64,000 nt of DNA from Trypanosoma brucei. Its lineage: Eukaryota. Each line of letters begins with the position of its first letter. The stretch's first letter is position 1. The stretch lies in contig CM000207.1 in NCBI GenBank assembly GCA_000002445.1, forward strand, positions 2,784,001 to 2,848,000, read 5' to 3'. Shown here piece after piece: positions 50,993 through 54,149 of this stretch. The notes beneath the pieces are model-generated. The model saw only the letters and a list, made by a program, of their open reading frames with translations. It did no database searches and was not told the origin of the DNA. Position numbers and translations under genes: made by a program.

Positions 50993-53278
50993 TTATGCTA
51001 TAATCAAAAAAGCAAGCAAAAATAGGGGCCTTGTTAATGACAACAGAATTGCTTCCTGTGGTGTTTGTGGCTTTTCTATCATCTTCTGATTTCATTCCTT
51101 CTTAAAGTTTGCACTTTTCACCTTTGTGCTCGCAATCTTTGTCTGCTGTACATTTACTTTCTTCTGTATCTTCCTTGCATTTTTTGATTTCTTCGAATCC
51201 ACTGCTTTTGTTTGTTGAGCCGCCGCTATCTGCGCGCGATCGGCTAGCAATATGCTTATTGCATTTAGTGCCTTGCCTTCGGTGCTGACGTCCCCAATAT
51301 CCACAGCTTGCACCTCTCCCCCTTTATAAATTTTAACCTTGTGGCCTGGTTTTAGAGTAGTGAATTTTGCGTTAAAGGCGTCGTTGTCTTTTCCATATGC
51401 GTCTTTTAAAAATTTAGTTAGTTGTTTGCTCTTCCTCTGAAAGTTTTGCCTTCCTCTGCACCCCTGTAGGTGGGTGCTGGCGGCTTGGACGACCAGCATT
51501 TCCGCAGCTAGTGCTTCCACGTTTAATGTCATTTTCTGGAATGTTGCTGGTTATGTTCGCAAGGCGTTACAGATAACTTTTGTGGCGTATTCTGCTGGCT
51601 TTCCTTCCTCTGTTGCATCGTTGTGCGTTGGGTTGCAGTCACGGACACTGTCTTGGTTCCTGTAAATTTGTAGTTTTTTGATCGGCTCAGTTCTCGGGGT
51701 CGCTTGTATTCCCGTCTGAATTATGGTTGGCGACAGAGTTGTTATTGTATCTTGTACGCAGTTAGCTGCAGCGTCTGCCCAGGTGCCGTAGCTTTGCGGA
51801 CTTTGGTTGCATCTTCCGCTCATGGCCAGTTGTATGACAGTCCAGCGGTTCCTTTTGTCTTTTTACTGCTGTCTGCTACGCGTAAACTTAGCAGCTTGCT
51901 TGGCTGCGTGTCTAGACTGATAATTTTGCTCTCGCCTGCTCATTGTGCGCGGTGCACCCTATTGCTGGTCAATCTTTCCTTGCTTTGCGAGACTTGTCAA
52001 AACCGTTATCAGCGCCAGTTCTTTAAGATACTATGTCAGGTGCGCTGCTGTGTTCGCTGCCTCGGTTGCAGGCTGTGTCACTTGTGCTTTTGACTTCTCC
52101 TCGTCGGCTGCCCCGACGATAGTACACAGAAATCCAAATATCTTTTTTTTTCTCCCTTGGCTGAGCACGCTGCTTTGCACCCCATTTGCAGCAGGGATAT
52201 TGCCAGTGTTGCCGCTACTATGAGCATTGGTTGCTTTACTCGTTTGGTGCCGTTCCGCGGCACCAACGTATTTAGCTGCTGCCTCTTCATTAAGCCGCTA
52301 GTGGTTGTGGCTTCTAGCGTTGTCCTGTTGTGGTGTTGGTGAACAGAAAATGTGGACCCTGTTTGAGTCGTTAACTAGAGTGCTCGTCGCAGATAGTGCC
52401 GGCATCGATCCCCGCGGACGGCAAGTATTTAGCTTACACCAAGGATGGATCTGCCTCAACGTGGCGCTATGGTCTAGTACCAGAAGAGAAATAGGCTGGG
52501 AAGCCAAATGTTCCATCCAAACGGCGGCCGCAACACCAGATATGGTGCGACCGCTCCGTGGGGAGAGAACCATTACTTAGTGTTCCACCACGGTTCAGCA
52601 CCCTGATCAGGTGGGGGAACGAAAATCCCTGATACAACCTCTGTCCGAGGAGGCAGATAGATATGGTAAACATGGTTCAGACGCAACGTGTCGGGGATCA
52701 AATGGGCGTCAAATGGAAGACCGTACCCCTTGACACGCACACATGCGGTCGCCCACATGTTGGTGTCAATTCTCAAAAAAAAACAGGGTCTTTTAGTGTG
52801 TAGGAATGACAATCTCCAGTGTGGAGTCTCACACTACCACGTTCTAGTGGCGTGGTGTGCGTAAATGCATTTCCTTTTTACCCTCTGGTGGACTGGCTGC
52901 GTGGTCCTGACGGTTGCACGAGGGAAAAAAAAAATTTTTACTGCCGCTTTTTCTTTTTGTTTTAGGTTTGTTGTTAATTCTCTAATTTCGGAAATTATTG
53001 CTTCCTTTCTTGGATGCCGCCTCTTATGTGTTGCGTTTGACTTGTTTTTTTCTAGATAGAGGTCTGCTTTGGGTTTCAACTTAATAAGCTTATTAATGTT
53101 GCCGGTCCGGTCGGTCAGTAGTTTGACTGCGCGTGCTGGCGCTTTTACTGGAGCTTCGAATAACTTCGCTAGTGCGGTCATTTTCCCTTGAGAGGCGTCC
53201 ACCATCGTCTGCACAAACCGGCGGGATAACATTGATTTCCAGTATACTGATCACGAGTATTATGCAGTGTGCCTTCAT
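50993..53278 (-). pseudogene. VSG pseudogene, heavily fragmented and over-long because of an internal foreign insert
   Basis: The C-terminus reads …NSVVINKAPIFACFFDYS… with stop about 50993. C-domain and hinge ORFs lie at 51092-51532 and 51551-51823, and N-domain pieces at 52078-52290 and 52834-53232. A signal-peptide-like start at 53278 reads MKAHCIILVISILEINVIPPVCADDGG. Confidence 0.7.
52340..52935 (+). other. Unassigned about 0.6-kb GC-richer segment ending in an A10 run, embedded in the VSG pseudogene N-domain (candidate retroposed insert)
   Basis: Composition shifts sharply relative to the flanking VSG sequence. Internal ORFs on both strands have no VSG character (for example …WATACVRVKGYGLPFDAHLIPDTLRLNHVYHIYLPPRTEV…). 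The segment terminates at GCACGAGGGAAAAAAAAAATTTTTA (52917-52940). No match to the ingi/RIME termini was seen. Confidence 0.35.
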
Positions 53279-54149
53279 AGTCTGCTGTGTTGCTTTAGGT
53301 AAACTATAGATAGTTACTGAAAGAGCCTAAGTTCCTCTGCTTTCTGTTTGTTTTAAAGCTCGCCGATTTCTTGGTTGTTCTGGTGGTCAAGAGTGGCTAT
53401 GAGGGCGAAAACTTTTATGTTTAACACCTGTATGTAGTTGGAAACCCGAAGCCTGATGCCAGCTACGCAAACCACATGTTGTTGGTTTTTTTTGAAATCT
53501 TCCGATTATTTATTTGGGGTTACGGTTGGCTAGAATTCTGAGTGCATGCCGTTTATCCTGCGCTGCTACGCAGAAAAAATTAGAACTCTTTGTAGAATTC
53601 AAAACCGTCTTTACTATCTTCAATAAAATTCCCTCTGCATCATGGTTATACTCCTTCAAAAGTGAAAGCACAAAAACGCCCTATAAAGAATCAGTTAACT
53701 TTTGTCAAACAGCACGTTAGTTTTAGCTTTAAAATTAAAAGGTGGAGCCGCTACCATAACCACTGCTATAGGGTCTACCCCTTTTTGAGTAAAAACGGGG
53801 TATCATCGGCTGAAGATGTATTATTTTTCACTTTTCTGATGTGTATATCGTTTTTTACTCTATGTTTCCTTATTTTCTTCTTTTTCTGCTTCCATCACTC
53901 CGGACAACATACAAAGTTCGTTTGGCCAACATAATGCACTCTGTCCCTCCATCATTGACATTCTCCATCACCTTGTGTATAATAATGACCATATTCGTGT
54001 TAGTGCTTAAAAAATTTAGCATGCTCTATTTCCGTTTCTCTTTTTGTTTTTCTACTTTTCCTTTAATTATATTCCTCCTACTTTCCCACCCAACTCACTC
54101 ACTTACATTGCACACTCGCTATTTTTAAGTCTTTCTGTATTACCTGGAC

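Follow-up and report, generated by a model that had tools for sequence, protein, structure and literature searches.

What is the block of foreign-looking sequence that interrupts a variant surface glycoprotein (VSG) pseudogene of Trypanosoma brucei, and how might it have come to lie there? The window analysed here is a stretch of 64,000 nt of contig CM000207.1 (assembly GCA_000002445.1, positions 2,784,001 to 2,848,000, forward strand), and all coordinates below are counted within it. The pseudogene occupies 50993-53278 on the minus strand. In a preliminary description made from the sequence alone, a segment at 52340-52935 ending in a run of ten A residues had been singled out as a possible uncharacterised retroposed element. 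Our results indicate, with a probability of about 0.96, that window 52357-52934 on the plus strand is one ordinary, old copy of TbSIDER2, an extinct and non-coding retroposon of the ingi clade that resembles a short interspersed element (SINE). The retroposon identity is real but already known, and the block does not represent a new family.

TbSIDER2 was described by Bringaud et al. in 2007 with 12 copies in strain TREU927 (PMC2323293), and was revisited in 2011 (PMC3820030) and in 2014 by Sanchez-Luque et al. (PMC4035085), where it is regarded as extinct. Among the short ingi-clade elements of T. brucei, RIME has a length of 500 bp and 86 copies, TbSIDER1 571 bp and 10 copies, and TbSIDER2 573 bp and 12 copies (PMC3820030). 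The reference set used here consisted of 7 complete TbSIDER2 sequences printed with 22-nt flanks, plus several TSIDER1 sequences (Additional file 1 of PMC4035085), and window 52100-53200 served as the blastn query against them. Full-length matches were obtained to all 7 TbSIDER2 copies, with identities of 79.3-86.9% and E values from 8e-146 to 0. Each match starts no more than 4 nt from the first base of the reference and ends in its A-tail. In a MAFFT alignment homology extends from CCCTG (52357) to the A-run, and the flanks are unalignable save for the 3' flank of the two chromosome 3 copies. By both methods the element is limited to 52357-52934 on the plus strand, and its 578 bp fall within the published TbSIDER2 length range of 558-587 bp.

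Divergence was measured against a 573-bp consensus that we built from the 7 references, which is not the authors' 12-copy consensus. The window copy diverges from it by 11.7% and the references themselves by 5.8-13.5%; the published values for the family, taken from its own consensus, are 8-13.7% with a median of 11% (PMC2323293), and the window copy lies within that range. Its closest relative among the 7 references is the Tb427_03 copy, at 87.0% identity. Full-length identity, size, 5' signature, internal A-tract, tail and divergence all agree, which makes the block a typical copy of TbSIDER2. This end-to-end match upholds the earlier view of a poly(A)-terminated, SINE-like retroposed element, while "uncharacterised" has to be withdrawn for a family known since 2007. 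The features on which the argument draws are as follows.

52357-52934, plus strand: full-length TbSIDER2, antisense to the VSG pseudogene (blastn and MAFFT against the 7 published copies).
52357-52517, plus strand: extended 5' signature region, beginning with CCCTG (aligned with the published copies and with the 79-bp 5' end of the window ingi).
52454-52481, plus strand: core of the ingi-clade 5' signature, CCTCAACGTGGCGCTATGGTCTAGTACC (compared with both window ingi 5' ends).
52775-52783, plus strand: internal A9, corresponding to an A-rich tract conserved in the family, and no second tail (same alignment column in 7 of 7 references).
52785-52931, plus strand: 3' module common to TSIDER1 elements at lower identity (compared with TcoSIDER1).
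52925-52934, plus strand: terminal A10, the retroposon A-tail (all reference copies end A-rich at the same column).
52323-52356, plus strand: 5' flank with a partial ingi4 target-site motif; a 12-bp duplication would be expected at 52345-52356.
52935-53278, minus strand: right flank, the 5' part of an A-type VSG from the start codon to about codon 116 (tblastn with P0009).
51940-52356, minus strand: left flank with VSG-like composition and without a detected homologue (DNA and protein searches).
50996-51939, minus strand: distal N-domain and C-terminal domain of the VSG pseudogene, of a lineage unlike that of the right flank (VSGs P0001-P0008).

The base composition had first drawn attention to the block, and composition does change near the limits originally given, although the true limits are those listed above. 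The GC content is indeed higher inside the element, but the difference from its flanks is modest (0.515, with 0.467 in the left flank and 0.429 in the right). The AT skew, which changes sign, is the clearer mark: it is +0.08 in the block and -0.38 and -0.39 in the left and right flanks, which are T-rich on the plus strand, as is expected for a minus-strand VSG coding sequence. Runs of nine or more A residues are rare, with only 7 in the whole 64-kb window. The two that had been pointed out here, a terminal A10 and an A9 about 140 bp upstream of it, were both confirmed, the A9 ending 141 bp before the A10.

It can be seen further that the element does not code for protein. No open reading frame is conserved across the 8 copies (the window copy and the 7 references), and no protein homologue was found in any frame, including by a search with six concatenated SIDER2-derived peptides. 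Pfam searches found nothing on the plus-strand frames of the block and nothing useful on the VSG fragments, and a metagenome contig scan with a conserved 30-mer of the element gave no match. Identical protein records were likewise not found for the 132-aa open reading frame across the junction or for two intact VSG open reading frames of the window.

The published copies used for comparison look patchily converted (Additional file 1 of PMC4035085). The Tb427_03 and Tb927_03 copies are identical in their 3' half and different in their 5' third, and in the chromosome 4 pair, one from T. b. brucei and one from T. b. gambiense, the flanks are nearly the same but identity inside the element is only 86%.

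The setting of the block is a VSG array that holds two ingi elements. The first lies at 18428-23677 on the plus strand and is complete (5250 bp), with a canonical 5' signature, an 8/10 match to the ingi4 target motif upstream and an A10 tail. The second, whose start is separated by about 850 bp from the 3' end of the VSG pseudogene, runs on the minus strand from about 50140 to about 44900. A VSG array with ingi elements agrees with published work, in which T. brucei retroposons are mainly subtelomeric and 95.5% of TbSIDERs lie outside directional gene clusters (PMC2323293).

These two ingi elements were also informative for the 5' signature. The region 52454-52520 resembled the 5' signature of the ingi clade, and blastn against the window supported this. 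In a search of the whole window, 52454-52481 matched 24 of 28 nt to 18446-18473 (plus strand) and to 50122-50095 (minus strand), which are the 5' ends of the two ingi elements. Together with the CCCTG start, this result contradicts the earlier statement that the block matches no ingi or RIME 5' terminus. The 5' signature of TbSIDER2 is about 161 bp long and contains two tandem Pr77 or "79-bp signature" hallmarks (PMC2323293, PMC4035085). In the window copy the signature is degenerate, the consensus CCCTGG...GCCAGGG having become CCCTGT...GCTATGG. The bases that would form the P1 helix of a ribozyme are mutated (CCCTGT and CTATGG, against CCCTGG and CCAGGG), and no ribozyme of the hepatitis delta virus (HDV) type was matched in Rfam at E<=10 within 52000-53300. 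Judged by its sequence, the copy would not qualify as an HDV-like ribozyme of the L1TcRz type, for which P1 pairing, a nested double pseudoknot and self-cleavage are needed. In vitro, cleavage was not seen with the TbSIDER2 constructs reported in PMC4035085.

Several points weigh against the assignment to TbSIDER2 and against the history that we propose below for this copy. First, the comparison was confined to the 7 printed copies with their 22-nt flanks. Secondly, the right flank shared with the two chromosome 3 copies spans just 22 published nucleotides. Thirdly, the ingi4 target motif, AxxxxxxxTxxxGTxGGxTxxx^xTxTxxTxxxxx (PMC3820030), is matched at only 6 of 10 positions (T9, G13, T14, G16, G17 and T29) in the 34 nt that precede the element. 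T9 and GTxGG sit at the correct offset, and against the background six or more matches have a probability of about 0.03 for the window and 0.05 for the local flanks. Finally, the short direct repeats that were to be looked for on either side of the block gave no convincing 12-bp target-site duplication: AGAAAATGTGGA and TTTTTACTGCCG, at the expected place, agree at 1 of 12 positions, and the best candidate (8/12) arises solely where it overlaps the low-complexity A-run. The complete ingi at 18428-23677, which was intended as a positive control, also has no clean 12-bp duplication. Such a duplication is the hallmark of a fresh ingi-clade insertion (PMC3820030), and a degenerate one has been reported for one TbSIDER2 copy only (PMC2323293); its absence is therefore no argument against membership of the family.

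Other origins of the block were weighed against the same evidence. A retroposon family or SINE not characterised before would explain the poly(A) end and the foreign composition, and would agree with the lack of a second copy in the window and of any Rfam or Pfam match. It is nevertheless very unlikely in view of the full-length identity of 79-87% to 7 published TbSIDER2 copies and of the size, signature, tail and divergence, all of which are typical of that family.

Retroposition of a cellular RNA (a tRNA, small nuclear RNA, rRNA fragment or mRNA), which the preliminary description had also allowed for, would likewise produce an A-tail, and the first 60 nt of the family consensus contain an A-box-like string, TGGTTTAGTGG, and a B-box-like string, GGGATCGATCC. 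However, the Rfam cmscan of 52000-53300 (E<=10) returned only a chance microRNA match, with 17.7 bits against a gathering score of 85, and ARAGORN predicted 0 tRNA genes in the 8 copies. With both programs negative, the tRNA-box resemblance in 52357-52420 (consensus 1-60) is unsupported. Since there is no protein homologue in any frame and the element belongs to a multi-copy family with an ingi-clade signature, a cellular RNA seems highly improbable as its source.

A RIME element or a truncated ingi would share with the block the CCCTG start and the 28-nt signature core, and RIME is about 500 bp long with an A-tail. RIME, however, joins the first ~250 bp of ingi to its last ~250 bp (PMC3820030). 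When the block was compared by blastn with the whole window, only the 28-nt core was matched in the ingi elements, and nothing in the ingi 3' end. Putative primers of a loop-mediated isothermal amplification (LAMP) assay for RIME, taken as no more than a lead, match the ingi 3' end and not the block. A RIME or ingi origin is on this evidence extremely improbable.

The same low probability applies to a TbSIDER1 (TSIDER1) element, which would have a similar size, a 5' signature and an A-tail, and whose 3' 120-150 nt are about 68% similar to the window copy. In detail, 52785-52931 is 68% identical over 149 nt to TcoSIDER1 419-565 (E 3e-15), and the 3' module of the window copy is 68% identical over 124 nt to TbSIDER1a (E 3e-10). 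What separates the block from TSIDER1 is that the likeness is confined to the signature core and this 3' module, at 68-71%, against 79-87% over the full length for TbSIDER2, and that the upstream motif TTTTxxxxxA^A is absent at the required offset. The 3' module was not found in the complete ingi of the window.

That the block is ordinary, diverged VSG N-domain sequence, as its place between VSG-homologous stretches might suggest, is almost inconceivable, because none of 9 VSGs gave a tblastn match within 52357-52934 (as had been noted of its translation), its AT skew has the opposite sign to that of the flanks, and TbSIDER2 copies homologous to it occur on chromosomes 4, 6 and 8 at loci without flanking VSGs.

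If the block is a TbSIDER2 copy, what is the gene around it? The conceptual VSG translation was searched against proteins, and the T. brucei and T. equiperdum VSGs that it matched were mapped back to the window by tblastn. Residues 1-116 of P0009, an A-type VSG of T. equiperdum (PF00913), map to 53278-52933. Residues ~171-486 of P0001-P0008 map to 51939-50996 with 57-67% amino-acid identity and with frameshifts, and the DNA of 50996-51939 is 74-78% identical to two T. equiperdum sequences (L002 and L003). The two flanks have different nearest relatives. An element-free comparator for the right flank was found in T. equiperdum contig L001 (CZPT02001228.1, 5300-6152), which encodes an uninterrupted P0009 and is without SIDER2. 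It matches window 53783-52936 at 83%, over the upstream region and the first 116 codons of the right flank, and beyond the position of the element it continues as VSG sequence unrelated to the window. Of the two outcomes that had been named beforehand as refuting the retroposon idea, neither was obtained: no VSG match runs across the block, and the A-run lies at a boundary of homology, the L001 match stopping at 52936, directly beside it.

The left flank gave a different picture. The 417 bp of 51940-52356 have the composition of a minus-strand VSG coding sequence, with a T9 run at 52143-52151, but the claim that the block sits inside VSG N-domain coding sequence holds only in part: VSG homology is present at 53278-52933 and at 51939-50996, and none could be demonstrated for 51940-52356. 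There was no blastn or tblastx match to this stretch in the window or in L001-L003. A full HMMER search with its 88-aa open stretch returned one spurious bacterial repeat protein, without a BLASTP alignment, a profile of 7 related VSGs (VSG-Y) gave no significant match, and a word-indexed search with 3 of 3 minus-strand frames found nothing. Weak colinear tblastn matches of the left flank to VSG N-domains appeared at permissive settings (E 0.002-0.013); they were unsupported by the profile search and were not relied on. When both flanks are read as coding, about 570 codons result, against about 485 in related VSGs. Excision of exactly 578 bp keeps the upstream frame in phase with the most VSG-like downstream frame, for which the chance is 1/3. 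We conclude that the VSG pseudogene is composite; its two flanks may or may not once have belonged to a single VSG.

The position of the element gives some indication of its history. The copy belongs to a silent VSG array in a subtelomere, where it lies antisense with the first 116 codons of an A-type VSG on one side and another VSG-like stretch on the other. The 22 nt that follow its A-tail (52935-52956, TTTTTACTGCCGCTTTTTCTTT) are identical to the 3' flank of both Tb427_03_v4:6,279-6,853 and Tb927_03_v4:5,793-6,411, and the 5' flanks of these two copies differ from that of the window. On the sequences compared, a junction of SIDER2 tail and VSG 5' fragment thus appears to be present in at least three places. 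From the shared right flank, the differing left flanks and the different relatives of the two flanks, we infer that the element was probably already part of VSG array segments whose segmental duplication or recombination brought the copy here, at least in part; a new retroposition into this particular gene is the less likely course. The copy is old, as is shown by its divergence of 11.7%, its degenerate 5' signature and the lack of a recognisable target-site duplication. Its present state is most likely that of an inert relic which contributes to the pseudogene status of the VSG.

For the original retroposition, the published mechanism of the clade may be applied. In the ingi clade transcription proceeds from the 5' signature (in L1Tc an internal promoter and HDV-like ribozyme), and the elements insert by target-primed reverse transcription, the non-autonomous members using the enzymes of an autonomous partner (PMC3820030, PMC4035085). 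For TbSIDER2, Bringaud et al. proposed in 2011 that the enzymes came from the ingi4 subclade, Tbingi or TbDIRE (PMC3820030). An ancestral copy would then have been transcribed from its 5' signature, and the RNA would have been copied into the genome by target-primed reverse transcription, with an endonuclease and a reverse transcriptase supplied by an autonomous partner, possibly of the proposed ingi4 type. The product would have ended in an A-tail, and a 12-bp target-site duplication would have flanked it while the insertion was fresh.

A wider interpretation can be imagined, in which the element would be a joint between pieces of different VSG genes, SIDER2 would provide portable homology for duplication and recombination in the VSG archive, and TbSIDER2 and TSIDER1 would have had a common extinct partner or ancestor. 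Portable homology is suggested by the junction of SIDER2 and a VSG 5' fragment, which recurs in the chromosome 3 copies of two strains with a different sequence on the other side, and by the patchy conversion among the published copies; a common partner or ancestor is suggested by the 3' module of about 150 nt found in both families. Taken jointly, these proposals are doubtful and we offer them tentatively.

For annotation, the block should be labelled TbSIDER2 and the surrounding VSG a composite pseudogene; the identification has little wider importance. The copy adds a case in which SIDER2 is carried in VSG array sequence with a junction common to other copies, and this shared junction bears on the spread of a relic by duplication rather than by retroposition. 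L001 is useful as a comparator without the element.

How does the element compare with known systems? Leishmania SIDER2 belongs to the same clade and has the same architecture, with two tandem signatures, a length of about 550 bp and an A-rich end, and it is extinct as well. It has reached about 1000 or more copies per genome, located in 3' untranslated regions and co-opted for mRNA decay, whereas the SIDER2 of T. brucei has about a dozen copies, nearly all outside transcription units, and is not known to act in mRNA decay. RIME and ingi are also of the same clade as the window element and have in common with it the 5' signature core, the A-tail and probably the ingi4-type target preference. 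Outside the signature core, in contrast, no homology was found between the element and the first 250 bp of ingi, nor with the ingi 3' end, and RIME copies are young, with a published median divergence of 4% against 11.7% for the window element.

The TSIDER1 elements (TbSIDER1, TcoSIDER1 and TvSIDER1) resemble the window element in length, 5' signature and A-tail, and in a colinear 3' module of about 130-150 nt. They differ from it in that the middle of the element cannot be aligned by blastn, in having a single signature of about 90 nt, and in their ingi6-type target motif TTTTxxxxxA^A. TSIDER1 is said to share just the 5' signature with other elements (PMC3820030). At the level of the families, TbSIDER2 consensus 399-529 is 71% identical to TbSIDER1a over 132 nt (E 1.7e-15), in colinear position, with a local score of 52 against 12.3 +/- 1.7 for shuffled sequences, and the 3' 130-150 nt of TbSIDER2 are 68-78% identical to TcoSIDER1 (E about 3e-15 to 3e-16). 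With this 3' similarity of TbSIDER2 to TSIDER1, the relationships among these families could be drawn more finely.

The closest comparison is that with TbSIDER2 itself. The window copy has a one-base loss and substitutions in its first signature, and its tail is a pure A10, whereas published TbSIDER2 tails are interrupted, e.g. AAAATCAAAAAAA. Nothing sets it apart as a member of the family, with which it shares size, CCCTG start, long 5' signature, internal A-tract, A-tail and non-coding nature.

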